Shown here in pieces: positions 4,270-30,036 of a DNA stretch of 64,000 nt (position 1 is its first letter; each line of letters begins with the position of its first letter). Made by a program: the position numbers and the translations under genes. A model generated the notes under the pieces. That model was not told the DNA's origin. It saw only the letters and a program-made list of their open reading frames with translations, and made no database searches. Origin of the DNA: an uncultured Acidobacteriota bacterium (GTDB taxonomy: Bacteria; Acidobacteriota; Thermoanaerobaculia; Multivoradales; JAHEKO01); NCBI GenBank assembly GCA_963713825.1, contig CAVQNG010000003.1:96001-160000 (forward strand), read 5' to 3'.

Positions 4270-4573
4270 AAGGGCGACGCTTTGTGAATTTGTCGAGGCT
4301 CACTCCACCCCTACGAATCGCGCAGTGAAGTTGCTTTGCCTCGAGAGTTAGTAGCACCCCTTATGGTGGGAATCCCTGCGCTCAGGGAGGTTTGATCGAT
4401 AGAGCAGGACAGTTTCCAGGCGCTTGGCCTGGTAGGGATCCAACTAGACCCTAGCGCTCGCGCAGACGAGCCTCTGCCTCATCAAAGAGGCGCGGAGGGT
4501 GCCCCCTGCTCGAGGAGTGGGGCGCTTCTTCGAGTGTGATAGCCGGCCTATCGGCATCACCCTTGTGAAAGAC

Positions 4574-5227
4574 CTATTCCGGGTACTGTGCGTCCAGCTC
4601 CGATTGGATCAATTGCCCCAACTGCCTGTAACCGAAGGTTTGCAGCGGTTTGCCGTTCACAAAGTAACCTGGAGTCTTCTGAACATTCAGAGCTTTCACG
4701 TCGGCCATGTCTTGTTCAATGATCCTGGCAATAACGGGGCTATGCATATCCTTCTTGATGCGCTCGATGTCGACCCCTGCCCCGGGAAGAACCTCCCATA
4801 ACCTCTGTGGTTGATAGTCATGGTGGCTGGCCCAGATGTTCTGGGTTCGAAACATGAGTTCCAGGGTTTCCCAGTACTTCCCCTGCATTCCGGCGGCTTC
4901 AAGAATCTTGACGAAGTCATCAGCGCCCTCATGGAAAGGGGCGTAGCGCAGAACCAGTTTGATCTTGCCGGGATTGGCAGCCATGATCTGTTGGATGAAT
5001 GGAGCAAAGGCGGCGCAGGTTTCGCAGGCCGGGTCCATGAACTCAACCAGATAGACCTTCGCATCATCACTGCCAAGTGTCTGCGAATGGGCTCTGACAA
5101 AGAGCTCAGCGTTGTCTGCCGCCAGGAAACCGTACTTCTGAGCCTGGCTATCTTTGTAGTAGTTGCTGGCGATCACAAAGCCCAAAATCAGTAGCAGGCA
5201 GGTGACTCCAACGAGCGCGTATTTCAT
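4574..5227 (-). CDS. dsbA: DsbA-family thiol-disulfide oxidoreductase (BdbD-like)
   Basis: N-terminal anchor, EFMDPACETC (CxxC), cis-Pro loop KTPGYFVNG. Confidence 0.85.
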   Translation of the reverse strand: MKYALVGVTCLLLILGFVIASNYYKDSQAQKYGFLAADNAELFVRAHSQTLGSDDAKVYLVEFMDPACETCAAFAPFIQQIMAANPGKIKLVLRYAPFHEGADDFVKILEAAGMQGKYWETLELMFRTQNIWASHHDYQPQRLWEVLPGAGVDIERIKKDMHSPVIARIIEQDMADVKALNVQKTPGYFVNGKPLQTFGYRQLGQLIQSELDAQYPE

Positions 5228-7270: not shown

Positions 7271-7467
7271 CTTCGAAGGGATGGCGTCCCAATCGGGACG
7301 CTCTTCCACCCAGTCGAGCAGGCGGCAAGAATGTCTGCCAATGACCCCACCCAAAGACGCTTCCGGCGGCCAACGCCTCGCCGTGGCCGATGTCAGTCGA
7401 CGCCCTGGCGAACAGGGCTGACCCCAGATCCATGGCCGGCGGAAGAGCGGACCAGAGGAGGTGCACG

Positions 7468-14332: not shown

Positions 14333-15670
14333 ATGAAGACTCTCGTCCAAACTCTGCTTCAGCCGATCTCCCCTGAGCGCCGCCGTGTCAGCTCCGGGCG
14401 ATTCCAGGATCTGCCGGACTCTCTGAAGACGCCTGAACAGATTATCGGCTTCGCTCATCACTCGTGTGGTGCAACACACGGCGTGCTGGAGCGCTGTGAC
14501 TTCGCCTGTACCAGTTGCTATCTGGGCGAGGAGGCCAACGCTGCAGAGCCTCTGCCCAGGGAGGAGGTCTTTCAGCAACTCGATCAGCTGCGCGAGTTCT
14601 TGGGTCCGCAGGGTAAGGCACAAATCACCGCGGGAGAGGTCACTCTGCTTCCCCGTGAAGTGCTGGGAGAGTATGTGCGCTATGCGATCGACATCGGACT
14701 CGATCCGATGGTCATGACGCACGGTCGCCGCTTCCTCCAGGAGCCGGAATATCTACAGCGGCTGATCGAAGAAGACGGTCTGGAGAAGATCTCTATCCAT
14801 GTCGACGCCACGCAACGGGGGCGGGAGGAGTGGAGTCCCTTTGTCACAGAAGGACAGCTCAACCCGGTCAGAGATCGGTATGCGAATCTGATTCGCCACA
14901 TGCGGGCCAAGACGGGTCGAAAGCTCCACGCCGCCCACACCGTCACGGTCACCCAGAAGAACCTCGATCAGATACCGACTATCATGCGCTGGCTCGTTCG
15001 CAATCTCGATGCCTTCAGGATGGTGAGCTTTCAACCCGTGGCCGAAGTAGGGAGAACCGAGGATCAAGCCAGTGCTGACTTGACGCTGACCGATGTCTGG
15101 GAACACATTGGCACGGCTCTCGGAAAGCCCCTCAACCGGGACGCCATGCACTTTGGGCATCCCGAATGCCACATCATGATCCCCGTGGTCGTGGTTCGCG
15201 TCGGCGAGGAGCTCTGCGTTCTGGAAACGGTCCGAGCCGGAAAGAGCTGGGACCGTTCCTACCTACGGAACCTGCTTCGAGCGGTCGGTGGCTATACGGT
15301 TCGCGGCAAGAGCCGGGGCGAGAACCTCCTGGGAATCGCCTCGCTGACCCTTCACAACCCGCTTCTACTCCTCGAGACGCTCTTCTACGGCTTGTACCGC
15401 ATATGGGGTGATCGACGAGATCTGGCCCGGATCCTCCTGCAAGCCATTCGAAGACGTACCATGAGCGTCCGCCCCCTCGCTCTCGTGGTCCACAAGTTCA
15501 TGAGCTCAGGGGAGCTCGAGACACCCCTGGGGCGGGAACGTCTTCAGGCGTGCACTTTTCGAGTTCCCGTGGAGGGTAGGATGATCCCGATGTGTGAGCT
15601 CAACGCGACGGGCCTGCGATCGAAGCTGTACCCGGCAGCCCGTCCCAGAAAGGTGGTTGGGGAATCATGA
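14333..15670 (+). CDS. Radical SAM protein of unknown function
   Basis: CDFACTSC (CxxxCxxC), TAGEVT, C-terminal RLQACTF...GRMIPMCELN. Confidence 0.85.
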   Translation: MKTLVQTLLQPISPERRRVSSGRFQDLPDSLKTPEQIIGFAHHSCGATHGVLERCDFACTSCYLGEEANAAEPLPREEVFQQLDQLREFLGPQGKAQITAGEVTLLPREVLGEYVRYAIDIGLDPMVMTHGRRFLQEPEYLQRLIEEDGLEKISIHVDATQRGREEWSPFVTEGQLNPVRDRYANLIRHMRAKTGRKLHAAHTVTVTQKNLDQIPTIMRWLVRNLDAFRMVSFQPVAEVGRTEDQASADLTLTDVWEHIGTALGKPLNRDAMHFGHPECHIMIPVVVVRVGEELCVLETVRAGKSWDRSYLRNLLRAVGGYTVRGKSRGENLLGIASLTLHNPLLLLETLFYGLYRIWGDRRDLARILLQAIRRRTMSVRPLALVVHKFMSSGELETPLGRERLQACTFRVPVEGRMIPMCELNATGLRSKLYPAARPRKVVGES

Positions 15671-16461
15671 CAACGGCATCCATTCGCTTTCGCCTCGTGC
15701 TATCGATCCTCTGCGCTATCGTGGTCGGGTCGATGTCGATCTCCGCCAGAGCCGCTGATTTCTCCTACGACGACTGGAACGTTGTCCTGAAGAAGTACGT
15801 CGACGACAATGGCTTGGTCGACTACCAGGGCCTGGCAGCGGACCGCCAGGCGCTCGACCGGTTCATCAGCCAGATCGAGACCACCGGCCCCAAGAGCGAC
15901 CCTGAGGCCTTCCCGACTCGGGAGCATCGGCTCGCTTACTACATCAATGCCTACAACGCCCAGGTGTTCAAGGGCGTCCTGAGTCTGTCACCTGATACCA
16001 AGACGGTCTGGGGATTCACCGGTACAGGCCTCGGCTTTTTTGTTCGCATGAAGGTGACCGTCGATGGCGAGACGATGAGCCTAAAGTCCCTGGAGGACGA
16101 CATCATTCGCGATGGATTCAAAGACCCCCGGATCCACGCCGCCCTCAACTGCGCCTCGGTGGGGTGTCCGAAGTTACCCGCCGAGGCTTTTGTGGCCAAG
16201 CGACTCGACGAGCAGCTCGACGCCGAGATGACGAAGTTCGTCAACGAGGAGCGCAACTGCAAGATCGACGCGGCGGCGGGGACTGCAACCCTATCGAAGA
16301 TCTTCGACTGGTTCCGAGAGGACTTCGAAGAGTATGAAGCGGCACACGGGGGCGGTGGTCTGCGGGAGTACATCAATCGCTACCGCCCCGCCGACGCCCA
16401 GCTCAACGCCGAGCTCAGGCTGGAGTTCTCCAAGTACGACAAGAGCCTGAATCGGCAGTAA
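15667..16461 (+). CDS. Exported DUF547 protein
   Basis: Signal peptide, GLVDY, LAYYINAYNA, DPRIHAALNCASVGCP, LSKIFDWF; ATGA overlap with the radical SAM gene. Confidence 0.88.
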   Translation: MTTASIRFRLVLSILCAIVVGSMSISARAADFSYDDWNVVLKKYVDDNGLVDYQGLAADRQALDRFISQIETTGPKSDPEAFPTREHRLAYYINAYNAQVFKGVLSLSPDTKTVWGFTGTGLGFFVRMKVTVDGETMSLKSLEDDIIRDGFKDPRIHAALNCASVGCPKLPAEAFVAKRLDEQLDAEMTKFVNEERNCKIDAAAGTATLSKIFDWFREDFEEYEAAHGGGGLREYINRYRPADAQLNAELRLEFSKYDKSLNRQ

Positions 16462-16465
16462 GCGA

Positions 16466-17908
16466 CTACCCCGTGGCTTCTGCGACCTCGATTCGTTTCT
16501 TCTTGTCGACCCGCGCGTAGTCGTAGAGTCCGGCCTCGTCGAAGATGACGCGATCTTCGTAGTCGTCGAACCAGATGGCGTCCGGATTGCGACCGACGAT
16601 GCAGACCTTGCCGCGGTCGGGGGCGTCCAGTGCGTTGCGGAGGATCTTGAAGATCACCACACCGTTCTCGGTTCCAGGAATGCCGGGAATCGGCTCGTTC
16701 GTGACAGCGGCCACTTCGGTCTTGCCCTTGTAGTGCGTGATCGACAAGCGGGCATGCGTTTCCACGCCGGACAGCCCCTTCTGGGACTCGTTCAGGGTCT
16801 GCCACACGGTCTCGATCGGGACGTTGAAGGCTCGATAGGCCACGATGTCCCTGCCGCAGAAGAAGTAATGGTTGCCGACGCCGACCCGAAACAGGGCTCG
16901 TTGCATGACTCTGAGCGCTTCCGAGTCAGCGTTGACCCCCTTGATGATCGGCGCTTGGTTTTCGATCTGGATCCAACCCCGGGAGGTGAGCGCCTTCATG
17001 GCCCGCCAGGTGTCCTCGTGGAACCTGAGCGAACCGTTCGGATTGGTCAGGTAGGCACCATCAGGCCCCTTTTGCAGGAACTCGTCCGGGTGGTTGAAGT
17101 GGATCATCAACCGGAAACCGACATCCGGGTAGGTCTGGTGGAAGTTGTCCAGCATCGAGAGGAAAGCCTCGTCGAATCGCTTCGGATGGAAAGCCAGCTC
17201 CTTGGTGCCCAGTCGGATCGCTTCCACTCCGGCTTCCGCGAGAGAGGCTAGCCACTCGCCGATTTTCCGGTTGGGTAGCACCATCGGATCGCCGCCGGAC
17301 AACAGGACCTCGCGGAGCTTCTCGCGGCCCGTCTTCGGGTGCCTCCCACCGTTGGCGGCTACGATCTCGTTGTGGGCCCGCACGTAGTCGGTGACAGCTT
17401 TGATCTTCGCCAGCCCCTTCTTGGCAACGGTGCCGTCCTGGCGCTCGATCTCCTTCTGGCTGATCAATTCCTCGCGGTAGCAGAACCGGCAGTGTGCCGA
17501 GCAGGTGGAGACGACATAAAGCAGGCCCATCTCGTACTTGTGCAGCATTCCCTCCACCGGAGCGAAATCCATCTGGTAGCCGGGGTCCTCGGAGCCGGCC
17601 AGATTGAGCGTCTCGTCCGGACTGGCCTTGACGATCCTCTGTACCGCCTTGCTGTTCTTGGCAATCTCGAAATAGTGCCGGGTGATTTTCACCGGCATGC
17701 GCTCCTCCACGTCCCGTGCCGTTCCGTGAACGCGAGACAGTGCGGCAATTTCCTCCGGAGAGTAGAAGCTCTTCATGTCCTCCGGCGCCTTGTCCTCGTA
17801 GAAGGGCTTCAAGCCGATGATGATCTGACGGTCGTACTTGGGGTTCTCGATCGTGTCCAGGAACGCTTGTTCGCGCTGCGTCGGAACGTAGTTGTCGTCG
17901 GTTGCCAT
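16466..17908 (-). CDS. KamA-family radical SAM/PLP 2,3-aminomutase, substrate probably not lysine
   Basis: HKY, CSAHCRFCYR, LLSGGDP, IRLGTK, HFNHPDE, NQAPIIKGVN and GKTEV (PLP lysine) match the lysine 2,3-aminomutase scaffold. Confidence 0.85.
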   Translation of the reverse strand: MATDDNYVPTQREQAFLDTIENPKYDRQIIIGLKPFYEDKAPEDMKSFYSPEEIAALSRVHGTARDVEERMPVKITRHYFEIAKNSKAVQRIVKASPDETLNLAGSEDPGYQMDFAPVEGMLHKYEMGLLYVVSTCSAHCRFCYREELISQKEIERQDGTVAKKGLAKIKAVTDYVRAHNEIVAANGGRHPKTGREKLREVLLSGGDPMVLPNRKIGEWLASLAEAGVEAIRLGTKELAFHPKRFDEAFLSMLDNFHQTYPDVGFRLMIHFNHPDEFLQKGPDGAYLTNPNGSLRFHEDTWRAMKALTSRGWIQIENQAPIIKGVNADSEALRVMQRALFRVGVGNHYFFCGRDIVAYRAFNVPIETVWQTLNESQKGLSGVETHARLSITHYKGKTEVAAVTNEPIPGIPGTENGVVIFKILRNALDAPDRGKVCIVGRNPDAIWFDDYEDRVIFDEAGLYDYARVDKKKRIEVAEATG

Positions 17909-17940
17909 TTCACACCTCTTCTTTGGCTGTCGCTATCGGG

Positions 17941-17969
17941 ATGCCATCTTTCGGAGTTGCTGATGTCAA
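17941..17969 (-). promoter_or_regulatory. Candidate sigma70 promoter for the aminomutase gene
   Basis: Minus strand TTGACA (17969-17964) - 17 bp - TGGCAT (17946-17941). Confidence 0.5.
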
Positions 17970-17976
17970 TCCGTAC

Positions 17977-18016
17977 TGTAACACAATGTACTCTTGACTT
18001 GTGGTAATGTAACACA
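17977..18016. promoter_or_regulatory. Candidate operator: TGTAACACA direct repeat
   Basis: TGTAACACA at 17977-17985 and 18008-18016 (31-bp period) in the divergent intergenic region next to the RpiR gene. Confidence 0.45.
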
Positions 18017-18859
18017 GTGAACACCGCGGAAGTCCCCACCTCCACCAGAGACCTGGTAGCCGCGGTGAGCAGCGAGCTCACCCCCACCGAACGGCGCATT
18101 GCGGAAGCCGTGCTGGCAGAGCCGACGCTACTGGCCTTCGGTACGGTGTCGGACCTGGCGGGCCGCGTTCGCACCAGTCGACCGTCCGTTGTGCGTTTTG
18201 CCAGGAAGCTCGGCTTCGAAGGCTACACGCAGCTGCAACGAAACGTCCGCCGCGATCTCTCCCGCCGTCTCGCCCGCCCAAGTGAGCGGATCCGGCACGA
18301 TGACGAGACCGGCCGACCGGCCAGGGTGGCGCTCGACAGCGCCATCGCCTCCGTGTTCGAAGCGCTCGAGGGCGAACGGCGGGCGGCCCTCGCAGCACCC
18401 TTCGTGCGCGCAGAGAACGTCTGGGTCCTTTCCGGAGAGACCTCGCAGGCTGGCGCCCATGCGTTCCACAGTCGCCTCTCCATCGTCCGACCTGGCGTGC
18501 GTTTGCTCGACGAGCACTCGATTGGCACCGACCTGAGCAGTGCGGGACCCGGCGACGCGGCGATCGTCTTCGACTTCTTTCGCTACCGCCGCCGCGTGGC
18601 CACAGCTGCCCGCTTCCTCGCGGATTCCGGTGCCACCGTCGTCGCGATCACCGACAGCCCGCTGTCGCCTCTGGTAGAGATGGCCGATCTCTGGTGCGAG
18701 GTCGAGGTGCCGGCCATCGGCCCGTTCGACAGCTCGGTCCCTGTCGTTGCGATTGCCGAGTCGCTCGTCTCCCAGGTGGCCAGGGATCTCCAGAACGAGG
18801 CGACTGCCCGTATCGACCGCATCGAGGCGCTTTGGGAAGCGACAGAGGTCTTCCTTTAG
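18017..18859 (+). CDS. MurR/RpiR-family transcriptional regulator (HTH + SIS)
   Basis: LTPTERRIAE...SVVRFARKLGFEGYTQLQ; VVAITDSPLSPL. Confidence 0.92.
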   Translation: MNTAEVPTSTRDLVAAVSSELTPTERRIAEAVLAEPTLLAFGTVSDLAGRVRTSRPSVVRFARKLGFEGYTQLQRNVRRDLSRRLARPSERIRHDDETGRPARVALDSAIASVFEALEGERRAALAAPFVRAENVWVLSGETSQAGAHAFHSRLSIVRPGVRLLDEHSIGTDLSSAGPGDAAIVFDFFRYRRRVATAARFLADSGATVVAITDSPLSPLVEMADLWCEVEVPAIGPFDSSVPVVAIAESLVSQVARDLQNEATARIDRIEALWEATEVFL

Positions 18860-18913
18860 CTATTCAATACCCAGGATTCGACAACCAGGAATCGCAGCCC
18901 AGGAGGTGTACCG

Positions 18914-19624
18914 GTGATTGACAAGACTTACCTTTCCGTCGCGGAGGCCGTGGCCGATATCCCGGACGGCGCGACCGTGATGGTGGGTGGCTTTGGCGCC
19001 TCGGGTAGCCCGATCGAGCTACTCCACGCGCTGATCGACCAGGGCGCCACCGGCCTGACCGTCATCAACAACAACACCGGCAACGGTGATGTGGGGCTGG
19101 CGGCGCTGATCGGCAACGGTCAGGTCAGCAAGATGATCTGCTCCTTTCCCCGATCCAGCCAGTCCAGGGTCTTCCCGAAGATGTACCAGGCAGGCAAGGT
19201 CGAGCTCGAGCTCGTCCCGCAGGGGACCCTCGCCGAACGAATTCGGTCGGGGGGCGCGGGGATTCCGGCGTTCTACACCCCGACCACGGTGGGCACCATC
19301 CTGGCCGAGGACAAGGAGTCGCGGGATTTCGATGGGCGCACCTTCGTGATGGAGCGCTGGCTCAAGGCCGACTTCGCACTGATCAAGTGCGAGGTCGCCG
19401 ACTCCCTCGGCAACCTGACCTACAACAAGACAGCGCGAAATTTCAGCCCTCTCATGTGCATGGCGGCTTCAACGACCATCGTGCAAGCGAAGCGACTGGT
19501 GGCCCGCGGTGAGATCGACCCAGAGCACGTCGTCACGCCCGGCATCTTCGTGGATCGCGTCGTCGAAGTCTCTCAGCCGGTCCACGAGGACACCCTCATC
19601 GCCGCGGGAAGGAGTTACCCATGA
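18914..19624 (+). CDS. pcaI: 3-oxoadipate CoA-transferase subunit A
   Basis: MIDK start, VGGFG, NNNTGNGDVGLAAL, ICSFPR, QGTLAERIR, ARNFSPLMCMA, VVTPGIFV. Confidence 0.88.
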   Translation: MIDKTYLSVAEAVADIPDGATVMVGGFGASGSPIELLHALIDQGATGLTVINNNTGNGDVGLAALIGNGQVSKMICSFPRSSQSRVFPKMYQAGKVELELVPQGTLAERIRSGGAGIPAFYTPTTVGTILAEDKESRDFDGRTFVMERWLKADFALIKCEVADSLGNLTYNKTARNFSPLMCMAASTTIVQAKRLVARGEIDPEHVVTPGIFVDRVVEVSQPVHEDTLIAAGRSYP

Positions 19625-20268
19625 GCAACGGTTGGACTCGAGAGCAGATGGCAGCGAGAGCGGCCCAGGACATCCCCGACGGCTCGTACGTCAATCTGGG
19701 AATTGGCATTCCCGAGCTGGTCGCGAAGTTCGTTCCGGCAGGCCGAGAGTTCATCTACCACACCGAGAACGGCATGCTCGGCATGGGTCCGCCGCCCACC
19801 GACGAGGAGCGGGACCTGGACCTGATGAACGCCGGTAAGAAGTACGTGACCGAGGTCCCCGGCGCCGCCTATTTCCACCATGCCGACAGCTTCAGCATGA
19901 TTCGTGGCGGCCATATCGATGTCTGTGTTCTCGGCACCATGCAGGTGGCGGAGAACGGCGACCTCGCCAACTGGTCGACCGGAGAGCCAGGTGCCATTCC
20001 CGCGGTAGGCGGCGCTATGGACCTGGTTCAGGGAGTCGAACGCATCTACGTGATCACCCAGCACACGACCAAGACAGGCGAACCAAAACTGGTCGGAAGG
20101 TGCAGCTATCCGCTAACCGGGACAGGGGTCGTGTCGCGGATCTATACCGATCTCGCCGTGGTCGACGTCACCGCGGATGGGTTCCGTGTCTTCGAGCTGG
20201 CGCCGGAGATCACTTTCGAAGAAGTCGAACAGAAAACCGGGGCGCCGATCCTGCCGGCCGAGCGATAG
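19621..20268 (+). CDS. pcaJ: 3-oxoadipate CoA-transferase subunit B
   Basis: VNLGIGIP, catalytic TENG, FHHADSFSMIRGGH, GDLANWSTG, IPAVGGAMDL. Confidence 0.88.
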   Translation: MSNGWTREQMAARAAQDIPDGSYVNLGIGIPELVAKFVPAGREFIYHTENGMLGMGPPPTDEERDLDLMNAGKKYVTEVPGAAYFHHADSFSMIRGGHIDVCVLGTMQVAENGDLANWSTGEPGAIPAVGGAMDLVQGVERIYVITQHTTKTGEPKLVGRCSYPLTGTGVVSRIYTDLAVVDVTADGFRVFELAPEITFEEVEQKTGAPILPAER

Positions 20269-20308
20269 CGCTGGTATCAAGTCCCTATTCGAGAACAGGA
20301 CATGACAA

Positions 20309-21508
20309 ATGACCGATGTATTCCTGTGTGATGGCATTCGAACGCCCGTCGGACGCTACGGCGGGGCCCTCTCAACGGTCCGGACAGACGATCTGGCAGC
20401 AATACCGATCACGGAACTGATGGAGCGGAATCCAGGGGTCGACTGGGACGCCCTGGACGATGTGATGCTGGGCTGTGCCAATCAGTCTGGGGAAGACAAC
20501 CGCAACGTGGCTCGCATGAGCAGCCTGCTGGCCGGTCTGCCCCAGGAGGTGCCGGCCTCGACCATCAATCGGCTGTGCGGCTCTGGACTCAATGCCGTGG
20601 GTACCTGCGCCAGCGCCATCAAGACGGCAGAGGGCGAACTGATGATCGCCGGCGGCGTGGAGAGCATGTCCCGCGCCCCCTTCGTCATCGGCAAGGCGGA
20701 AGGCGCCTTCGGACGGACGCAGGAGATGCACGACAGCACCATGGGGTGGCGCTTCATCAACCCGAAGCTGCAAGAGCAGTACGGCACGGATGTCATGCCG
20801 AAGACGGCGGAGAACCTGGCTGAGGAGTACGACATCAGCCGTGAGGATCAAGATCGCTTCGCGTTCTGGAGCCAGACCAAGGCAGCCACTGCGCAGGCCG
20901 ATGGTCGTCTTGCCGGTGAGATCTGCGCGGTCACCGTTCCGCGGCGCAAGCAGGACCCTCTGATCGTCGACCGGGATGAGCATCCACGCGAGACATCGCT
21001 CGAAAAACTCGCCAAGCTGCGACCGCTGTTTCCCGACGGCACCGTGACCGCGGGCAACGCCTCGGGCATCAATGACGGAGCCGCGGCCCTGCTACTGGCT
21101 TCGGAGGCAGGAGCCAAGCGCCACAACCTGGAACCCAGGGCCCGCATTCTCGGCATGGCCGTTGCCGGCGTACCGCCTAGGATCATGGGAATTGGACCAG
21201 TTCCGGCAACCCGCAAGCTACTCGCGCGTCTGAAGTTGACGCTGGACGATTTCGACATTCTCGAGCTCAACGAAGCCTTCTCGGCCCAAGCGCTCACCTG
21301 TACTCGGCAACTGGGGCTGGCCGATGACGACCCGAGGATCAACACCCGCGGGGGCGCGATCGCGTTGGGCCACCCGCTCGGCATGAGTGGCGCCCGCCTG
21401 GCGGTGACCGCGATGGATCAACTCCAGCGCGATGGAGGGAAGCTGGCGCTCTGCACCATGTGCATCGGGGTGGGGCAAGGGATCGCCCTCGTTCTGGAAG
21501 GACTCTGA
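20309..21508 (+). CDS. pcaF: 3-oxoadipyl-CoA thiolase
   Basis: [54 protein letters not shown]. Confidence 0.9.
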
Positions 21509-21510
21509 GA

Positions 21511-22815
21511 ATGGAATCACTCGAGCAAGCCATCGAAGGCGCCCGGGCGCGGTACGCGTCCGCCAATCCCCTCAGCCAGGCCGCGGATCACGAGGCGGAA
21601 CGTTGCCTGCCAGGTGGCAACACGCGCTCGGTCCTCTACTTCGAGCCCTTTCCCTTGACCATGGTCACCGGAGAGGCAGCAGAGCTGACCGACCTGGATG
21701 GTCACCAGTACGTTGATTTCGTAGGCGAGTTCTCCGCGGGCCTGTTCGGACATTCGAACGAGATCATCAAATCAGCGGTGCACGAGGCCCTCGACACGGG
21801 TGTCGTCATGGGTGCGCCGACCCGCTTCGAAAGAGAGCTGGCCAGCCTGTTGTGCGAACGGTTCCCCTCGGTCGACGAGATCAGGTTCTGCAACTCGGGT
21901 ACCGAGGCCAACATCATGGCGCTGGCCGCGGCGCGAGCCGTGACGGGCCGCGACAAGGTCCTGGTCTTCGAAGGCGCCTATCACGGTGGCGTCCTCAAAT
22001 TCCCGGCCGGAGGCTCGCCCCTCAACGTCCCCTACGACTTTGTCCTCGGGGTCTACAACGACATCGAAGGCACCGCCGAGTTGATCCACCGCGCGGGAGA
22101 CGAGATCGCGGCCGTCATCGTCGAACCTATTCTGGGCGCCGGCGGAAACATTCCCGGCAGCCTGGAGTTCCTGAAGATGCTCCGGCGAGAGACGCGGCAA
22201 GTCGGGGCGTTGCTGATCTTCGATGAAGTCAAGACCTCGCGGCTTGGCCCGGCGGGTCTCCAGGGTTTGCTGGGTATCGAGCCCGATCTGACAGCGCTCG
22301 GGAAGTACATCGGCGGCGGGCTGCCGACAGGCGCGTTCGGCGGCAGCGCCGAGATCATGGAACGCTTCAACCCGAAACAGAAGGGCTCCTGGGCCCACGC
22401 CGGTACCTTCAACAACAACATCTGTTCGATGGCCGCCGGCTGTGCGGCGATGAGTCGGGTCTATACGCCACAACGCGCGGCGGAGTTCTTCGCAACCTCC
22501 GAGGCATTTCGGGTGTCGCTCAACGAGATGTTCACAGAGCGAGAGGTGCCGATGCATTGCAACGGACTGGGATCCATCTTCGCGATTCACTTCGCACGTC
22601 AGCCGGTTCGAAAGACGGCCGATATCACCGCAGGATGCTTATCCCTTCGCCCCCTGCTGCACATGGAGCTGCTCCTCGAAGGCGTTCTGGTCTGCAGTCG
22701 CGGCGACATGTTCCTGTCGCTGCCGATGACCGAGACCCATCTTTCGAAGGCACGTCACGCCCTCGAAAGCTTCGCCGATCGTTACAAACCTCTGATTCTC
22801 GAAGTCCTGCAGTAG
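21511..22815 (+). CDS. Class III PLP aminotransferase, beta-amino-acid (beta-phenylalanine-type) transaminase
   Basis: PGGNTRSVLYFEPFP, EFSAGLFGHS, FCNSGTEAN, YHGG, FDEVKTSR, LGKYIGGG, HAGTFNNN; lacks the HemL SPVR motif. Confidence 0.8.
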   Translation: MESLEQAIEGARARYASANPLSQAADHEAERCLPGGNTRSVLYFEPFPLTMVTGEAAELTDLDGHQYVDFVGEFSAGLFGHSNEIIKSAVHEALDTGVVMGAPTRFERELASLLCERFPSVDEIRFCNSGTEANIMALAAARAVTGRDKVLVFEGAYHGGVLKFPAGGSPLNVPYDFVLGVYNDIEGTAELIHRAGDEIAAVIVEPILGAGGNIPGSLEFLKMLRRETRQVGALLIFDEVKTSRLGPAGLQGLLGIEPDLTALGKYIGGGLPTGAFGGSAEIMERFNPKQKGSWAHAGTFNNNICSMAAGCAAMSRVYTPQRAAEFFATSEAFRVSLNEMFTEREVPMHCNGLGSIFAIHFARQPVRKTADITAGCLSLRPLLHMELLLEGVLVCSRGDMFLSLPMTETHLSKARHALESFADRYKPLILEVLQ

Positions 22816-22907
22816 TTCGGGGGACACAATACTGATTCCCACCGTTAGTGGGCTGCAGGGACGGGCAGGGGTGATTCGGAGCTGAGATGCTCGGGGAATC
22901 CGAAGTA

Positions 22908-22929
22908 TGGCTGGGAGGCAGGGATTCGA
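22908..22929 (-). repeat. Duplicated 3' end of tRNA-Gln (att-like)
   Basis: TGGCTGGGAGGCAGGGATTCGA is identical to 23078-23099 (22 bp). Confidence 0.85.
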
Positions 22930-23077
22930 GGATCGCAAGCGACCCTCGATGCGAGCTGTGTCTTCGGGGAGGGCAAAGCCCCTCCCCGTACCCCTCCCCA
23001 GGGGTTCGAATCCCAGCGAGTGCACTGACCCGCAGAGAACAAATTCGGAAGTGTGGTGCTTGAATAGTCAGGTGGGG

Positions 23078-23151
23078 TGGCTGGGAGGCAGGGATTCGAA
23101 CCCCGATTCCACGGTCCAGAGCCGCGTGTCCTACCATTGAACGACCTCCCA
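23078..23151 (-). tRNA. tRNA-Gln(CTG)
   Basis: TGGGAGG...CTCTGGA anticodon loop...GGTTCGAATCC...CCTCCCA-GCCA; 74 nt with encoded CCA. Confidence 0.95.
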
Positions 23152-23296
23152 ACGGCGGCGAGATCCTAGCAATTCCCTAGGCGAGAGGTCAAACCCCGAG
23201 ATCGTCAGAACAATCAGGCAGTGACCCGAAAGTTCTATACTTGGCGAGGGTGATGTTTCCTGTGATCGATTCGAAAATCCGAGACACAGGAGTCCT

Positions 23297-24241
23297 GTGA
23301 ATCGCCATACCAAAGAGGGGGACGGGACCGTGTCAGAGACCAGACCCACGAACCTGCGTACCATTCTTGTCGCCACAGACTTCTCACAGACTGCTCAGGC
23401 GGGAATCGACTGGGCCGTGCTGTTGGCGAGCTCACATGGAGCCCGCATTGAGCTGGTGCACGCCCTCCTCGTACCGAATCGAGCAACAGACTTCGTTCCC
23501 TCGCCACCCGATTTCACCGAGGCGCTGCAAGAAGCTGCCTCCGGCAAACTGAACGAAGCAGCTGAAGCCATCCGGGCGAAAGGGGTGGAGGTCGATTCCC
23601 ATCTCCGCCTCGGAGTCCCGTCCCAGGTGCTCCTGCAGACCGCCGAAGACAAGGAGGTCGACACGATCGTCGTCGGCACACGCGGTCTCACAGGAATCCG
23701 ACACCTACTCCTTGGCAGCACCGCGGAGCGAGTCGTGCAGCACGCCACTTGTCCGGTATTGACGGTCCACCCCGGCGACGCCGATCACCACCGCGAGATC
23801 AGAACGGTTCTGGTCTCGACCGACTTCTCCCATGACTCCGAGACGAGCATCGCCGCCGCATTGCGCCTGCTCGGCCCGCAGCCCGAAGCCAAGCTCGTTC
23901 TGCTCCACGTCTATCATCTGCCCTACGAGTACACGGCATACGGCACGATCCCCACCTCGCTGGACTATTTCAAGGATGTCGAAGGCGCCGCAGAGGAACG
24001 CCTCAATGAGATGGCCCGCGTCCTCGGTCGAGAAGGCCTCACTGTCGAGACCGTGGCCAAGGAGGGCTATCCCCCGGACACGATCATCGATCAGGCAGAC
24101 GAGGTCGGTGCCGACCTCATCGCCCTCGGAACTCACGGCCGAACAGGCCTCGCACACCTGCTGCTGGGCAGCACGGCGGAGCGCGTCGTGCAACACGCAC
24201 GCTGTCCCGTGCTCACGGTGAAGACCGCAGGCGAAAGCTGA
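23297..24241 (+). CDS. Universal stress protein, tandem USP domains
   Basis: Two (I/V)LV(A/S)TDFS and GTxGxTG...LLGSTAERVVQHAxCPVLTV repeats. Confidence 0.93.
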   Translation: MNRHTKEGDGTVSETRPTNLRTILVATDFSQTAQAGIDWAVLLASSHGARIELVHALLVPNRATDFVPSPPDFTEALQEAASGKLNEAAEAIRAKGVEVDSHLRLGVPSQVLLQTAEDKEVDTIVVGTRGLTGIRHLLLGSTAERVVQHATCPVLTVHPGDADHHREIRTVLVSTDFSHDSETSIAAALRLLGPQPEAKLVLLHVYHLPYEYTAYGTIPTSLDYFKDVEGAAEERLNEMARVLGREGLTVETVAKEGYPPDTIIDQADEVGADLIALGTHGRTGLAHLLLGSTAERVVQHARCPVLTVKTAGES

Positions 24242-24371: not shown

Positions 24372-24465
<94 letters not shown>

Positions 24466-24660
24466 GCGGTCCTTGCAGGACTTCACATTCTATGGGCCCC
24501 TTCGAGCCGGAGTCAAAGCATGCTTTCAGCCGCGGCTCCTCGGTTGGCAGACGCCCGAATCCCGGCTATGCTCGTGCCACCCCAAGCTGTTGGATCCCTT
24601 GACCACGCAACTCCACCATCCGTTGACGCCCCATCTCTCGCTGGAACGAAAGGCAGATTC

Positions 24661-26679
24661 ATGAGCCCCAAGGCCCAGGCTGAAGTCGACACGACGGCCA
24701 TCAATACCCTTCGCTTTCTCGCCGTGGACATGGTGGAGAAAGCGAACTCCGGACACCCCGGTGCACCCATGGGACAGGCCGCGATGGCCTACTCCCTCTG
24801 GACTCGCCACCTGCGTTTCAGCCCCGGGACTCCAGGCTGGCCGAATCGGGACCGATTCGTTCTTTCCTGCGGCCACGCATCGGCCCTGATCTACTCACTC
24901 CTTCACCTCAGCGGCTTCGATGTTCCTTTGAGCGCACTGCAGGAGTTCCGGCAGTTCGAATCGATCACCCCTGGTCATCCGGAGTACGGTCTGACTCCAG
25001 GCGTGGAAACAACGACCGGGCCTCTCGGTCAGGGACTCGCCAACGGCGTCGGTATGGCCATGGCCGAAGAGATGCTGGCCGCCTACTTCAATCGTGACGG
25101 GTACGACCTTCTCGACTACAACACCTGGATCTTTGCCAGTGATGGAGACCTGATGGAGGGGATCGCTTCCGAGGCCTCTTCGCTCGCTGGGCACCTCGAA
25201 TTGGGCAAACTCATCGTAGCCTGGGATGACAACCGGATCTCGATCGATGGCTCGACATCCCTGACCTTCAGCGAAGATGTGTGCCAGCGCTACGAAGCCT
25301 ACGGCTGGCATGTGCAGAGGGTCGAGGACGGCAACGACCTCGAGGCCCTCGACGCGGCCTACGAAACGGCCCGAGAGGAAGGCAACAGACCCTCCCTGAT
25401 CGCAGTACGCACGCACATCGGCTTCGGCAGCCCCAACAAGCAGGATACTTCGGCCTCTCACGGTGCCCCGCTGGGGGCCGAAGAGGTCGTTGCCACCAAG
25501 AAGGCGTTGGGTTGGCCTCTCGAGCCGACCTTTCATATTCCCGAGAAAGGCCTCGAGCCGTTTCGGAATGCCGCTGAAGGGGGTGCCCTGGAGGAGATGG
25601 CCTGGAGGGAGATGTTCTCGCTCTATGCCGAGGACCATCCGGAGTTGGCGAGTGAGTTCCTGAATCGACTCGCCCGAACGCTGCCCTCGGAATGGACCGA
25701 GAGCCTGTCCACTTTCGGTGTTGGGGACGGCCCCCTCGCTACGCGCAAAGCGTCAGGCAAGGTCCTCAACTCCATTTGTGACGCCATCCCCTACCTGGTG
25801 GGTGGCTCCGCCGACCTCGCCGGTTCCAACAATACCTACCTCCAGGGTCTCAGTGATTTCTCGGCTGGCGAACCCGGCGGCCGAAACCTCCATTTCGGCG
25901 TTCGCGAGCACGCCATGGGTGCCATTCTCAACGGGCTGGCCCTTTCCGGAATGCTAATTCCTTACGGCGGCACGTTTTTGATCTTTTCGGACTACATGCG
26001 GCCTTCGATCCGCCTCGCGGCCCTCATGGGGCTGCCGGTCAAGTATGTCTTCACGCACGACTCGGTCTTCGTGGGAGAGGATGGGCCCACCCATCAGCCG
26101 ATCTCCCAACTGCTGTCGCTGAGGGCCATCCCTGGCCTCACCGTGATCCGGCCCGCTGACGCCAACGAGACAGCGGCTGCTTGGCGGGTGGCCATCGAAC
26201 GCCAAGACGGCCCGACTGCACTTGCTCTGAGCAGACAGAGCTTACCGGTCATCCGGCAGGATCCGGAGAAGGCAATGGAGGGCGTGGCTCGGGGGGCCTA
26301 TGTCGTGGCCGACCCTGACGAAGACGAGCCCCAACTGGTGCTCATTGCCTCAGGTTCAGAGGTGTCCCTGGCTCTCGATGCCCAGGCCTTGCTGGCGGAG
26401 CAGGAGATCGCGGCCCGCGTCGTGAGCTTTCCGTCCTGGGACCTCTTCGACGCCCAGGATCGCGACTACCAGGAGAGCGTCCTACCGCCGGGGATCTCGA
26501 AGCGGCTGGCGATCGAGGCCGGGACGACGCTGGGCTGGGACCGCTATGTCGGCGCCGAGGGAGATGTCATCGGCATCGACAGCTTCGGAGCCTCGGCTCC
26601 CCACCAGGCCGTCGCCGAGCATTTCGGATTGACCCCCGAATCGGTGGTGGAGCGCGCCAAGGCCCTCCTCCTCCGCTAA
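24661..26679 (+). CDS. tkt: Transketolase
   Basis: [58 protein letters not shown]. Confidence 0.97.
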
Positions 26680-26691
26680 GCTACCGCCGCT

Positions 26692-28266
26692 ATGGTGAGA
26701 ACTCGCTTCGCTCCGAGCCCGACGGGCTTTCTTCACATCGGTGGTGTGCGCACCGCGTTGTTCAACTGGCTCTTTGCTCGCCACAACGAGGGACACTTCA
26801 TCCTGCGAATCGACGACACCGATGAGCAGCGCAACGTCGCCGAGACCCTGCAGCCGATCCTCTCCGGTCTCCGATGGTTGGGGCTCGATTGGGATGAGGG
26901 CCCCGACGTCGGTGGTGACTATGGTCCCTACTTTCAGTCGCAACGCCGAGAACAGCACCAGGCTGCCGTAGAGAATTTGCTGTCCGGTGGATACGCCTAC
27001 CGGGACTATTCCACCCAGGAGGAGCTCCAGACGGAGCGCGAAACGGCCCAAGCCGAAGGCAAGCGCTTCATCTACAGCCGGCGCTGGATGGCAGAGACCG
27101 CGGAGCAGGCGGAGCGCTTCGAAGCCGAGGGACGCACGGCGGTGGTCCGCCTGAAGATGCCCAGGGAGGGCGTTTGCCGGTTCAGGGATCTGATTCGAGG
27201 CGAGGTGGAGTTCGAGTGGGCCCAGGAACAGGACCATGTCATCCAGCGTGCTGACGGATCCTGCCTCTATCACCTGGCCAGTGTTGCCGATGACGCGGCC
27301 ATGGAGATCTCTCACGTCATCCGGGCCGAAGAGCACCTCTCCAATACGCCTCGACAGATCTTCATCTTCGAGGGCCTCGGTCATGAGCCGCCGGAATTCG
27401 CTCACTTGCCCTTCGTAGCCGAGCCCGGCAGTCGCAACAAGCTCAGCAAGCGCAAGCTCGAGAAGTACCTCAAGAATCCCGACTTCGCCAAGATGCATCA
27501 ACACGGCGTGACGATCGCGGCTGCCATCGGACTCGAAACGGCCGCCGAGACCTTCAACCCGGTCATCGTCGACTTCTACGAAAAGGTCGGCTACCTGCCC
27601 GACGCTCTCGTCAACTATCTACTGCTCCTGGGATGGGCCCTCGACGACCGGACGGAGTTCTTCTCGAGAGAGGAGATGATCGAGCAGTTCACGCTCGAGC
27701 GGGTCAATCGTTCTCCCGCCAGCTTCGACCCCAACAAGCTCCTGGCCTTTCAGGAGCACTACATGCAGGAAATGCCAGTGGCCGAGAAACTACCCTGGGT
27801 CCTGCCTTACCTGGAGGCCGCCGGGTTCCTCCCATCTCCACACATTGATGAACCGTCCGGCTTCGTGACGGAGATGCTGCGGGCAGCCGGAGACCGGATC
27901 AAGGTGGCAGGCGAGAGCCTCGACTACCCCGAGTTCTTCGTCGGCGACGCTGCCTTCCCCTACGATTCAAAGGCCTTCGACAAGCGCTTGAAGAACGCGC
28001 CAGAATCGGTAGCACTTCTGCAGGCCTTCAGAGATCAACTGGCGGCCATCCAACCCTTCGAGGCCGCCACCCTCGAAGAGGCAATGCGCCGTTTCGTGGA
28101 GTCGGAAGGTGTCAAGATCGGACAGATCATCCATACACTGCGGGTGGCAGTCACCGGCAAGGCCGTCGGATTCGGCATGTTCGAGATCCTGGAGATCCTC
28201 GGCCGGGAACGCAGCCTCGCACGCATCGATCGGGCCCTGGCCCGGCTCGACGAAGCTCCTAGTTAG
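26692..28266 (+). CDS. gltX: Glutamate-tRNA ligase
   Basis: RTRFAPSPTGFLHIGG (HIGH), LRIDDTD, KLSKR. Confidence 0.95.
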   Translation: MVRTRFAPSPTGFLHIGGVRTALFNWLFARHNEGHFILRIDDTDEQRNVAETLQPILSGLRWLGLDWDEGPDVGGDYGPYFQSQRREQHQAAVENLLSGGYAYRDYSTQEELQTERETAQAEGKRFIYSRRWMAETAEQAERFEAEGRTAVVRLKMPREGVCRFRDLIRGEVEFEWAQEQDHVIQRADGSCLYHLASVADDAAMEISHVIRAEEHLSNTPRQIFIFEGLGHEPPEFAHLPFVAEPGSRNKLSKRKLEKYLKNPDFAKMHQHGVTIAAAIGLETAAETFNPVIVDFYEKVGYLPDALVNYLLLLGWALDDRTEFFSREEMIEQFTLERVNRSPASFDPNKLLAFQEHYMQEMPVAEKLPWVLPYLEAAGFLPSPHIDEPSGFVTEMLRAAGDRIKVAGESLDYPEFFVGDAAFPYDSKAFDKRLKNAPESVALLQAFRDQLAAIQPFEAATLEEAMRRFVESEGVKIGQIIHTLRVAVTGKAVGFGMFEILEILGRERSLARIDRALARLDEAPS

Positions 28267-28296: not shown

Positions 28297-30036
28297 ATGA
28301 GCAAGCCCACTCCTGAGAACCCAGACGCCGGCCACGAGGCCGAGACTCAGACCGCCAGCAACTTCATCCGTTCGATCATCGATCAGGATGTCGCGGCCGG
28401 CAAGCATGAAGGTCGGGTTCACACCCGCTTTCCCCCCGAGCCCAACGGCTACCTCCATATTGGGCATGCCAAATCGATCTGTCTCAACTTCGGCATCGCC
28501 GCCGACTACGACGGCCTGTGCAACCTCCGATTCGACGATACGAATCCCATCAAGGAGGAGGCCGAGTTCGTCGAATCGATCAAGGAAGACGTCCGGTGGT
28601 TGGGCTTCGATTGGCAGGATCGCGAGTTCTACGCTTCCGACTATTTCGGACAGCTGTACGAGTGGGCCCTCGAGTTGATCCGCAAGGGCAAGGCCTATGT
28701 GGACGATCTGACGGCCGAAGAGATTCGCCAGTATCGAGGCACGCTGACCGAGCCCGGCAAAGAGAGTCCCTATCGAGACCGGTCGGTGGAAGAGAATCTC
28801 GCTCTCTTCGAGTCCATGCGAGCCGGCGAGCTCGCCGACGGATCCAAAGTATTGCGGGCCAAGATCGACATGGCGGCCGGGAATCTCAACATGCGGGACC
28901 CGGTCCTGTACCGCATTCTGCATGCCAGCCACCATCGAACCGGCGACGAGTGGTGCATCTATCCGATGTACGACTTCGCGCACGGTCAGTCCGATTCCAT
29001 CGAGAAGATCACGCACTCCCTGTGCACCCTGGAGTTCGAGGATCATCGACCGCTGTACGACTGGTTCATCCGCGAGCTGGAGATCTTCCCCTCTCGTCAG
29101 ATCGAGTTCGCCCGTCTAAACCTCAGCCAGACCGTCCTGAGTAAGAGAAAGCTCAAGCAGTTGGTCGACGAAGGCCTGGTTTCCGGTTGGGACGATCCAC
29201 GAATGCCCACCATCTCGGGGCTTCGCCGCCGCGGCTACACGCCGGAATCGATCCGCGATTTTGCCGACCGAATCGGCGTTGCCAAGGCCGACAGCACCGT
29301 GGATATGGCCCTACTCGAGCACTGCCTGAGGGTCGACCTCAACAAGCGGGCGCCGCGAGTGATGGCTGTGCTCGACCCCCTCAAGGTCGTGATCGAGAAC
29401 TACCCCGAAGGCGAGTCCGAGCTGTTGGAGGCCGTCAACAACCCCGAGGACCCAGAGGCCGGCAGCCGGCAGATCCCCTTCTCCCGCGAGCTCTGGATCG
29501 AGAAGAACGACTTCCGCGAGGAGGCACCCAAGAAGTACTTCCGGTTGGCTCCGGGCCGGGAGGTCCGCCTGCGCTACGGCTTCTTCATCACCTGCCAAGA
29601 GATCGTCAAGGATGAGACCACCGGCGAGGTCGTCGAGCTGCGATGTACCTACGATCCCGAGACGAGGGGTGGCTATGCTCCGGACGGGCGAAAGGTCCGC
29701 GGCACGATCCACTGGGTCTCGGCACCCGAGTCGGTCGATGCCGAGGTCAGGCTGTACGACCACCTCCTGAAGCCGGTCGAGGAGAGGCCGGCTGGCGAGG
29801 CCAAGGACTTCAAGGCCAGCCTCAATCCCGACTCTCTGCAAGTGCTATCTGGCTGCAAGGTGGAGCCCAGCCTCAAAGGAGCAGCGCCCGAAAGCCGCTT
29901 CCAGTTCGAGCGCCAGGGTTACTTCTGCGTCGACAACCACGACTCGACGCCCGAGCACCTGGTCTTCAACCGGACTGTGACCCTACGAGACACCTGGGCC
30001 AAGATCGAAAAGGCACAGAAGCAGGCCGCCGGGTAG
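28297..30036 (+). CDS. glnS: Glutamine-tRNA ligase
   Basis: [58 protein letters not shown]. Confidence 0.97.

Follow-up and report, generated by a model that had tools for sequence, protein, structure and literature searches.

A KamA-like radical SAM aminomutase linked to PcaIJ(F)-type enzymes and a beta-transaminase: a candidate catabolic module for an acidic amino acid

Among the described systems which lie close to the one considered here are those of beta-lysine catabolism. In Pseudomonas (B4) beta-lysine is reportedly degraded via a 3-keto acid and coenzyme A (CoA)-dependent cleavage, and the kamA-yodT cluster of Bacillus subtilis is said to be a kamA operon with aminotransferase and CoA-transferase genes; a search by gene names found no paper on the latter operon. 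Here we describe a six-gene locus in a 64,000-nucleotide stretch of DNA from an uncultured Acidobacteriota bacterium (the window; contig C3 of genome G000, which is 5.4 Mb and 96% complete). In this locus the gene for a KamA-like aminomutase stands divergent from an operon specifying an RpiR-family regulator, PcaI-, PcaJ- and PcaF-type enzymes and an aminotransferase. Judged by their sequences, these genes quite probably encode a route in which an aminomutase, a beta-transaminase, a CoA-transferase and a thiolase act upon an acidic amino acid.

The genes were identified from a map of open reading frames (ORFs) together with family profile scans of the window proteins. The aminomutase, a KamA-like radical S-adenosylmethionine (SAM) and pyridoxal phosphate (PLP) 2,3-aminomutase of 480 aa (P0001) bearing the motif CSAHCRFC, is encoded on the minus strand at 16466–17908. 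A divergent control region of 108 bp (17909–18016) separates it from a five-gene operon on the plus strand (18017–22815). The latter opens with an RpiR/MurR-family regulator possessing HTH_6 and SIS domains (18017–18859), followed by a PcaI-type 3-oxoacid CoA-transferase subunit A (18914–19624) [TIGR02429, 354 bits, cut-off 128.5], a PcaJ-type 3-oxoacid CoA-transferase subunit B (19621–20268) [TIGR02428, 295 bits, cut-off 243.6], a PcaF/PaaJ-type 3-oxoadipyl-CoA thiolase (20309–21508) [TIGR02430, 677 bits, equivalog cut-off 597] and a class-III beta-transaminase resembling MesAT and VpAT (21511–22815), hereafter called type 1, with Lys241 and Asp399 in its pocket. The ORF of this last gene extends from 21460 to 22815, its likely ATG being at 21511, directly past the pcaF stop. 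All six genes lie where the original prediction, which was made from the sequence of the window, had placed them. The annotated flanking genes, among them radical SAM and DUF547 genes, a universal stress protein, a transketolase and tRNA synthetases, have no apparent connection with the module.

In the proposed route the KamA-like enzyme, with its [4Fe-4S] cluster, SAM and PLP, would shift the amino group of an L-alpha-amino acid with an acidic side chain by one carbon, from C2 to C3. The beta-transaminase would pass the 3-amino group to a 2-oxo acid, leaving a 3-oxo dicarboxylic acid; PcaIJ would transfer CoA to this from succinyl-CoA, and a PcaF-type thiolase would carry out thiolysis of the 3-oxoacyl-CoA. 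With the C6 substrate 2-aminoadipate the intermediates would be 3-aminoadipate, 3-oxoadipate and 3-oxoadipyl-CoA and the products succinyl-CoA and acetyl-CoA, the succinyl-CoA being recycled as CoA donor. Since the thiolase product and the CoA donor would be one and the same compound, the C6 route would be self-contained. One would assume that the RpiR-family protein, either as repressor or activator, controls a self-contained and horizontally mobile catabolic module. The individual catalytic steps, their order, the catabolic direction and the substrate we infer from the sequence comparisons given below; for the substrate, 2-aminoadipate is our tentative choice, to which we give a little less than an even chance.

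The evidence which carries this proposal is the conservation of the linkage. The aminomutase belongs to a large family, with 2,148 of the 8,000 scored candidate proteins matching at E ≤ 0.001. When a single genome was scanned for each species, 281 stretches encoding relatives came to light, and the best 80 of the 281 (72–98% identity) were taken as ortholog loci with up to 10 kb of flank, within which partners were counted. These loci are titled Pseudomonadota (Woeseiaceae, Lysobacterales), Actinomycetota (Acidimicrobiia), Acidobacteriota, Planctomycetota, Gemmatimonadota and others. When the window proteins were mapped onto them, PcaI was found near the aminomutase in 75 of the 80, PcaJ in 73, RpiR in 68, the aminotransferase in 66 and PcaF in 29. 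This linkage of the aminomutase with PcaIJ and the aminotransferase is far beyond chance and is our strongest result. It bears out the co-occurrence that had been predicted for the aminomutase, PcaIJ and a beta-transaminase-like enzyme, which extends across phyla and, as described below, to genomes in which the genes are unlinked. PcaF, which had been counted as a member of the module, passes the equivalog cut-off in the window and is, by the above count, not a constant member of it.

Two architectures account for most of the loci. In type A (40 loci) the RpiR-PcaIJ(F)-aminotransferase operon is divergent from the aminomutase, as in the window; 33 of the 40 have an aminotransferase 63–94% identical to that of the window, and 26 have PcaF. 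In type B (34 loci) the aminomutase, PcaI, PcaJ and an aminotransferase are on one strand with the aminomutase directly upstream of PcaI, and RpiR is divergent. The aminotransferase is here only 30–37% identical to the window protein in 32 of the 34 loci, and we refer to it as type 2. One locus (L067) has another arrangement. Five lack PcaI, three of these being cut by nearby contig ends, and the loci without an aminotransferase are mostly truncated as well.

On the aminomutase tree (a quick maximum-likelihood run, with support from the Shimodaira–Hasegawa-like approximate likelihood ratio test only) the architecture label requires 2 changes compared to about 25 in shuffles. The clade of the window is nested within a type-A clade labelled mostly gammaproteobacterial, and other loci labelled Acidobacteriota are placed elsewhere. 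Since architecture follows the tree while the taxon labels are mixed, the module has passed from phylum to phylum in one piece, with the proviso that the labels of metagenome-assembled genomes are those of the depositors and may include binning errors.

The association was also observed at the level of whole genomes, in 61 related genomes which, being kin, do not provide independent counts. The aminomutase ortholog is present in 11, a PcaJ-family gene in 16 and both in 10; in the eleventh genome bearing the ortholog, the contig stops inside pcaI. One of the 61 (G006) has neither the ortholog nor PcaJ. In three genomes (G007, G009 and G033) the aminomutase is unlinked, yet a PcaI-PcaJ-type-2 aminotransferase operon is present elsewhere. 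Five further PcaJ-positive genomes have weak KamA-like matches which, by their coordinates, adjoin PcaJ. Three of these were inspected (G017, G034 and G027), and a deep KamA-like paralog (P0273/P0274; 518–534 aa, 23% identical to the window protein) was found directly upstream of PcaI-PcaJ-type-2 aminotransferase, on the minus strand in each case (L135, 7432–8988; L136, 8267–9871; L137, about 7766–8548). Coordinates suggest the same for G026 and G035. The paralog has the same Arg/Ser/Lys signature as the window aminomutase, and in L136 it is preceded by a thiolase which scores best against the PcaF model, at a sub-threshold 520 bits. In the PcaJ-positive genome G025 (88% complete) the trio is present and no KamA-like gene was found in the 16 kb examined. 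This co-occurrence ties the "pca" transferase of the lineage to a KamA-like enzyme and not to aromatic catabolism.

The aminomutase scores 93.3 bits against TIGR00238, below the cut-off of 199.2, and 70–82 bits against all of the equivalogs. Among these are lysine 2,3-aminomutase (TIGR03820 / EpmB type, 70 bits, cut-off 525) and glutamate 2,3-aminomutase (TIGR04368, 79.4 bits, cut-off 650), the latter score being one with which glutamate is still compatible as substrate. Its sister clades likewise reach no named equivalog. By these scores it is a distant new KamA subfamily outside all of the named ones. A profile of 23 family members aligns to the lysine 2,3-aminomutase structure 2A5H over residues 27–357 (E 6e-81), and the AlphaFold2 model (predicted local distance difference test score 90.2) has 2A5H as its top Foldseek match (E 1e-19, template modelling score 0.58/0.68), the next having E ≥ 5e-5.

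The catalytic residues are intact. C136, C140, C143, R145, S204-G-G-D207, R353, D354, S389 and K396 are conserved in all 80 orthologs. The three cysteines of the CxxxCxxC motif (C136/C140/C143) are also invariant in the 23-sequence family alignment, R145 lies two residues past the third of them, and the SAM-binding motif SGGD (S204–D207) is undamaged. The invariant K396 is aligned by the profile with the GK of 2A5H. In lysine 2,3-aminomutase Arg134 and Lys337 are presumably the alpha-carboxylate arginine and the PLP lysine, while Asp293 and Asp330 are, we assume, the residues which bind the lysine epsilon-ammonium. The columns of these two aspartates are occupied by Arg353 and Ser389 in 80 of 80 orthologs, and a canonical KamA-family protein included in that alignment retains both aspartates. 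This replacement argues against lysine, arginine or ornithine as substrate and for one with an anionic side chain.

The aminotransferases point in the same direction. The nearest solved relatives of the type-1 enzyme are MesAT [2YKU and 6IZ9, 457 bits] and VpAT [4AO9, 413 bits], and glutamate-1-semialdehyde aminomutases reach no more than 235 bits, which upholds the beta-transaminase assignment that the window gene had been given. The substrate-contact residues of MesAT include, according to PMC6698932, Arg54, Ala225, Met256, Lys280, Arg412 and Met414. Relative to that residue list, a gap-free alignment shows R54, K280 and R412 to be kept in type 1, while in the hydrophobic pocket Met256 is replaced by Lys in 31 of 31 sequences and Met414 by Asp in 30 of 31. 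Lys and Asp at these positions imply that the beta-amino acid has a polar or acidic side chain and is not aromatic. Among solved structures, the type-2 enzyme is closest to 6K8H and then to ForI. Measured against the same list, Ala225 gives way to Arg in 32 of 33 type-2 sequences and Arg412 is not kept, in a pocket alignment which at 30–37% identity is less certain; the equivalent of the carboxylate-binding Arg54 is present in both types. Two non-orthologous aminotransferases, each with a basic pocket residue, thus lend independent support to a dicarboxylic beta-amino acid. Taken with the Arg353/Ser389 change in the aminomutase, the charge changes in both aminotransferase types support a dicarboxylic substrate for the putative route.

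PcaI is 63–65% identical to its counterparts in pcaIJF clusters of Paracoccus denitrificans and Aureimonas plasmids, PcaJ shares 59–61% identity with that of authentic pca clusters, and the thiolase is 66–68% identical to the PcaF of those operons. The comparison operon on the Aureimonas plasmid has an intradiol dioxygenase and a maleylacetate reductase as neighbours, and that of P. denitrificans an IclR (PcaR-type) regulator. The PcaIJ proteins score 262–307 BLAST bits against pca clusters and 211–225 HMMER bits against ScoAB of B. subtilis, figures which come from different programs. The succinyl-CoA:3-oxoacid CoA-transferases of B. subtilis and Helicobacter pylori as a group give 195–225 HMMER bits, a modest discrimination from which substrate preference is unreadable. 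Among the best solved relatives of the thiolase are 8GQH ("Thiolase", 564 bits) and the beta-ketoadipyl-CoA thiolases 6PCA–6PCD (552–562 bits), solved entries named acetyl-CoA acetyltransferase reaching about 310 bits. In two type-B loci (L086 and L090) thiolases 57–61% identical to that of the window score 619 and 600 bits, above the PcaF cut-off. PcaF-type thiolases have thus been recruited at least twice, in two or more architectures. L092 has a thiolase neighbour similar to those of L086 and L090.

Genome G000 has a single PcaJ-family gene and a single PcaF above the cut-off. The window had been said to lack ring-cleavage genes, and this now extends to the genome: no intradiol dioxygenase (PF00775) was found in the whole of G000 at its 96% completeness, nor any PcaD above the cut-off (best 165 vs 256 bits; pcaB and pcaC were not searched for). 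Showing neither an intradiol dioxygenase nor a PcaD above the cut-off, G000 is without an evident aromatic source of 3-oxoadipate. Three of the five module-bearing genomes that were searched whole carry a thiolase above the PcaF cut-off.

Within the control region the direct repeats TGTAACACA (plus strand) are found at 17977–17985 and 18008–18016, with a spacing of 31 bp. A pair of GTTACA motifs spaced 30–31 bp apart, represented in the window by these repeats, occurs in 57 of the 68 intergenic regions between RpiR and the aminomutase, which come from several phyla, with a single copy in the 11 others. The pair occurs in 54 of 10,239 background windows of 130 nt, which were drawn from loci with identifiers starting L0 and include the RpiR/aminomutase intergenic regions themselves. 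The TGTAACACA repeats are the probable operator of the RpiR-family regulator. A scan of 16200–23400 for promoters and terminators gave no signal above shuffles. In one metatranscriptome (X19) short contigs 90–97% alike cover the aminomutase, RpiR, PcaF and the aminotransferase; since these are contigs of relatives and the library may contain DNA, they do not demonstrate transcription. A further library (X20) is probably DNA.

Some variants of the module bear upon its substrate. In L043 and L053 the gene after the aminotransferase (22 nt downstream in L043) belongs to the saccharopine-dehydrogenase family (L043, 3983–5125, minus strand; L053, about 4407–4802, minus strand). Its best solved relative is PH1688 [3ABI, 186 bits], which we take to be L-lysine 6-dehydrogenase, and the next matches are aminoadipate-semialdehyde synthase and saccharopine reductase. 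Another member of the family flanks RpiR in L065 (7970–9061, plus strand), so that such genes occur in 3 of the 80 loci overall.

A variant of the module is also present in a cultured rhizobium, on a plasmid of Mesorhizobium sp. 113-3-3 (NZ_AP023244.1, 11995–17918; L120). Here the order is aminomutase (66.5% identity), ferredoxin FdxA, a type-2-like aminotransferase, a CoA-transferase and a GlxA-family (GlxA/GbdR-like) regulator. The ferredoxin fits the need of a radical SAM enzyme for a reductant. The beta subunit of the CoA-transferase is nearest to glutaconate CoA-transferase [1POI_B, 116 bits], and a GctAB-like enzyme at this place points to a dicarboxylate. The alpha-subunit gene (about 15200–16000) is not in the gene table and its frame looks interrupted; the subunit may be disrupted.

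De novo clustering of the 1,060 ORFs from the 80 loci revealed no other gene family extending beyond 12 loci. A number of other genes follow the aminotransferase in individual loci. A co-directional flavoprotein of 678–696 aa with OYE-like FMN and pyridine-nucleotide-disulphide-oxidoreductase domains, resembling FadH/BaiCD, is found 10–12 nt downstream in the Woeseiaceae-type loci L051, L052 (3130–5166), L054 and L055, and also in L053 and L040. An FAD oxidoreductase of the DAO family (365 aa) lies directly downstream in two Acidimicrobiia loci, L082 (14187–15284) and, 5 nt after the type-2 aminotransferase, L091, and may act as an amine or imino-acid oxidase feeding the route. SSF symporters follow the aminotransferase in L024, L036 and L066. 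An ORF of 135–137 aa, conserved in five Actinomycetota loci, stands 10–40 nt after the type-2 aminotransferase in L068–L072 and L083 and lacks matches in Pfam and NCBIfam. Among plasmid-borne PcaIJ-like pairs the closest (66–67% identical) is on Tistrella mobilis plasmid pTM2 (L112, 1–7657), where genes for a PLP aminotransferase, an aldehyde dehydrogenase and a DUF1338 protein lie nearby; the DUF1338 family presumably includes the 2-oxoadipate-converting HglS. This may be another link of this transferase clade to lysine/aminoadipate metabolism.

What, then, is the substrate? The original prediction had named 2-aminoadipate. Of this, a dicarboxylic substrate is supported by the pocket charges and the C6 acid is tentatively favoured, with glutamate or beta-glutamate, which the prediction had also named, as the alternative. 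2-Aminoadipate is favoured because PcaF-type thiolases occur in two architectures, because the PcaIJF trio is like those of the pca operons in sequence and order, and because of the lysine-6-dehydrogenase-like neighbours; the want of an evident aromatic source of 3-oxoadipate in G000 speaks for it too. The neighbours are poor as strong C6 evidence, since across the 61 relatives such genes show no association with the module: strong orthologs are present in 2 of the 11 module genomes and in many module-free genomes too. Several other observations likewise weigh against our choice. A dedicated PcaF is missing in 51 of 80 loci, including most type-B clusters, and two of the five module genomes searched whole (G062 and G064) have no PcaF above the cut-off, the best score being about 375 bits. 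An Arg in the Asp293 column is common to many uncharacterised KamA-like clades; it is therefore weaker as a specific marker and may lack substrate specificity. Beside the module in the 80 loci there is neither a conserved transporter, only scattered ABC, SSF and MatE genes being seen, nor any aminoadipate-semialdehyde dehydrogenase that we could find. The CoA-transferase of the Mesorhizobium variant has as its nearest solved relative an enzyme acting on a C5 dicarboxylate. Finally, 3-aminoadipate appears in the literature searched only as a metabolomics or chemical name, while glutamate 2,3-aminomutases are known.

Marine pore waters contain beta-glutamate (3-aminoglutarate) as one of their major free amino acids, and methanogens use it as an osmolyte. 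It is possible, though we consider it doubtful, that the module acts upon L-glutamate via beta-glutamate, or on beta-glutamate perhaps taken up from pore water, to give 3-oxoglutarate. This would end either in 3-oxoglutaryl-CoA and its cleavage to malonyl-CoA and acetyl-CoA, or in decarboxylation to acetoacetate and thence, via acetoacetyl-CoA, two acetyl-CoA. Arg353 and Ser389 are compatible with any acidic side chain, all architectures retain a core of aminomutase, CoA-transferase and aminotransferase, PcaF being often absent as noted above, and the glutaconate-CoA-transferase-like enzyme of Mesorhizobium and the position of ForI as second-best solved relative of the type-2 aminotransferase would both suit a C5 acid. 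The 18 runs which hold at least half of the sampled words of the stretch include sediment, freshwater-sediment and salt-marsh metagenomes, and glutamate 2,3-aminomutases occur among both bacteria and archaea, going by a preprint and the papers it cites (bioRxiv 10.1101/2025.11.21.689712). Set against this are the equivalog score of 79 bits for a cut-off of 650, the recruitment of PcaF-type thiolases at least twice in a trio like that of true 3-oxoadipate operons, and the flanking of three loci by lysine-pathway genes and of none by glutamate-specific ones. Glutamate has, moreover, cheap catabolic routes already, and a link from beta-glutamate to 3-oxoglutarate was not found in the literature searched. 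The more particular proposal, that beta-glutamate finds its missing sink in the module, which would interconvert it with glutamate and pass it through 3-oxoglutarate and 3-oxoglutaryl-CoA to acetyl-CoA and malonyl-CoA, seems to us rather unlikely. If true, it would provide a route to malonyl-CoA needing neither ATP nor biotin, in abundant benthic bacteria such as Woeseiaceae.

Less probable by our reckoning is a substrate other than these, polar or acidic, such as 2-aminopimelate or an amino acid carrying a modification, or activation by CoA before aminotransfer, as with the 3-aminobutyryl-CoA aminotransferase of lysine fermentation, which acts on a CoA ester. The type-1 pocket gains Lys and Asp together, many uncharacterised clades share the Arg in the Asp293 column, and the genes after the aminotransferase vary (OYE/FadH-like flavoprotein, DAO-like oxidase, SSF symporters), all of which would suit such a substrate; nothing positive speaks for any particular one, the Arg54 equivalent is kept in both aminotransferase types, and PcaIJ-family enzymes are known for 3-oxo acids. 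That the genes work in the biosynthetic direction, from acetyl-CoA and succinyl-CoA via 3-oxoadipyl-CoA, 3-oxoadipate and 3-aminoadipate to 2-aminoadipate, or to beta-glutamate as an osmolyte in the C5 analogue, is very unlikely. The four reaction types are reversible in principle and there is no conserved uptake system; the thiolase condensation and the formation of free 3-oxo acids are nevertheless unfavourable, the thiolase is absent from most type-B clusters, and a dedicated regulator with a conserved operator together with a patchy horizontal spread typify accessory catabolic modules. A module for lysine or beta-lysine is highly improbable in spite of the matching kinds of enzymes (aminomutase, class-III aminotransferase, two-subunit CoA-transferase) and of some public sources naming the orthologs "lysine 2,3-aminomutase". 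Both of the aspartates that bind the epsilon-ammonium of lysine are replaced, by Arg and Ser, in 80 of 80 orthologs, a canonical member keeping the two, the lysine 2,3-aminomutase equivalog gives 70 bits for a cut-off of 525, and neither an acetyltransferase nor a deacetylase is conserved beside the module in the 80 loci. We find it barely credible that the adjacency is non-functional, with the aminomutase in an unrelated role and PcaIJF and the aminotransferase acting on something else. The window aminomutase is divergent and outside of the operon, and it is unlinked in three genomes; against this, linkage holds in 75 of 80 loci across phyla, in 34 loci the gene is on the same strand directly upstream of PcaI, the trio is present in the unlinked genomes too, and a deep paralog fills the same operon slot. 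Jointly, other substrates, step orders or directions form a minority prospect beside our preferred reading, that of a catabolic module for an acidic amino acid with 2-aminoadipate as the leading candidate.

Should either the 2-aminoadipate or the glutamate version prove true, radical SAM 2,3-aminomutases would gain a new substrate class and beta-transaminases a new class for dicarboxylic beta-amino acids. There would also be a non-aromatic, O2-independent entry to the beta-ketoadipate enzymes, whose usual annotation is that of aromatic catabolism. The pcaIJF genes in sediment metagenomes would then be read differently, PcaJ occurring almost never without a KamA-like gene in the 61 related genomes. 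That the family is large, highly conserved and exchanged as one block with its regulator and operator among phyla labelled Pseudomonadota, Actinomycetota, Acidobacteriota and Planctomycetota suggests an important substrate in anoxic sediments. The conversion of lysine or 2-aminoadipate to succinyl-CoA and acetyl-CoA with transamination as the sole oxidising step would be of interest for engineering of adipate and other C6 pathways.

Several genes in the rest of the window merit mention. On the plus strand at 14333–16461 a radical SAM protein (445 aa) with weak likeness to TrsS and to the tetraether synthase Tes adjoins a DUF547 gene. The two overlap by 4 bases and are convergent with the aminomutase; the pair is kept within the genus (L014/L023) and elsewhere does not accompany the module. 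Also on the plus strand are two adjoining class-Ic (Glu/Gln-type) aminoacyl-tRNA synthetase genes (26692–28266 and 28297–30036) and a transketolase ORF (24373–26679) whose TIGR00232 match begins at residue 109, some 100 residues past the first start codon, so that this longest ORF may be an over-long call. A multi-haem cytochrome c of 528 aa (7390–8976, plus strand) fits an anaerobic respiratory lifestyle of the host.

We found no description of the route in the literature searched, which lay mostly outside subscription journals, so that an earlier description is possible; as far as this search reaches, it agrees with the claim that the route is undescribed. The beta-lysine systems reportedly follow the same logic, in which an aminomutase is followed by beta-transamination, a 3-oxo acid and CoA-dependent cleavage. 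They act, however, on lysine or acetyl-beta-lysine with the aid of an acetyltransferase and a deacetylase, whereas the present module has neither the lysine-binding residues nor such conserved genes. With KamA of Clostridium subterminale (2A5H) the window aminomutase shares the cluster motif, SGGD, the PLP lysine, the carboxylate arginine and the fold. It differs in being about 20% identical, in having Arg353/Ser389 for the aspartates, and in being some 65–140 residues longer than the canonical members seen (343–416 aa). The bacterial and methanogen glutamate 2,3-aminomutases are, like the proposed enzyme, KamA-family proteins with an acidic substrate, but the window enzyme falls far below their cut-off. 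They presumably have Lys/Asn where it has Arg/Ser, and we know of no described tie of these enzymes to a CoA-transferase/transaminase module.

MesAT of Mesorhizobium sp. LUK (2YKU) and VpAT of Variovorax paradoxus (4AO9), the nearest solved relatives of the type-1 aminotransferase, have Arg54, Lys280 and Arg412 in common with it. According to PMC6698932, Met256 and Met414 of MesAT touch a phenyl or alkyl side chain, and in their place the window enzyme has Lys and Asp. The lower beta-ketoadipate pathway shares with the window the order pcaI-pcaJ-pcaF and 59–68% identity. The ring-cleavage and enol-lactone genes of the aromatic pathway were not found in G000, where PF00775 and PcaD were searched. 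Unlike the pca operons, the window has an RpiR regulator in place of PcaR/PcaQ, closes its operon with a beta-transaminase and pairs it with an aminomutase. Each enzyme belongs to a known superfamily, then, and by analogy the logic has its precedent in beta-lysine catabolism; what appears from the sequences to be new is a KamA-like subfamily whose pocket is of the acid type, beta-transaminases whose pockets carry charges, and the fixed coupling of both to PcaIJ(F).

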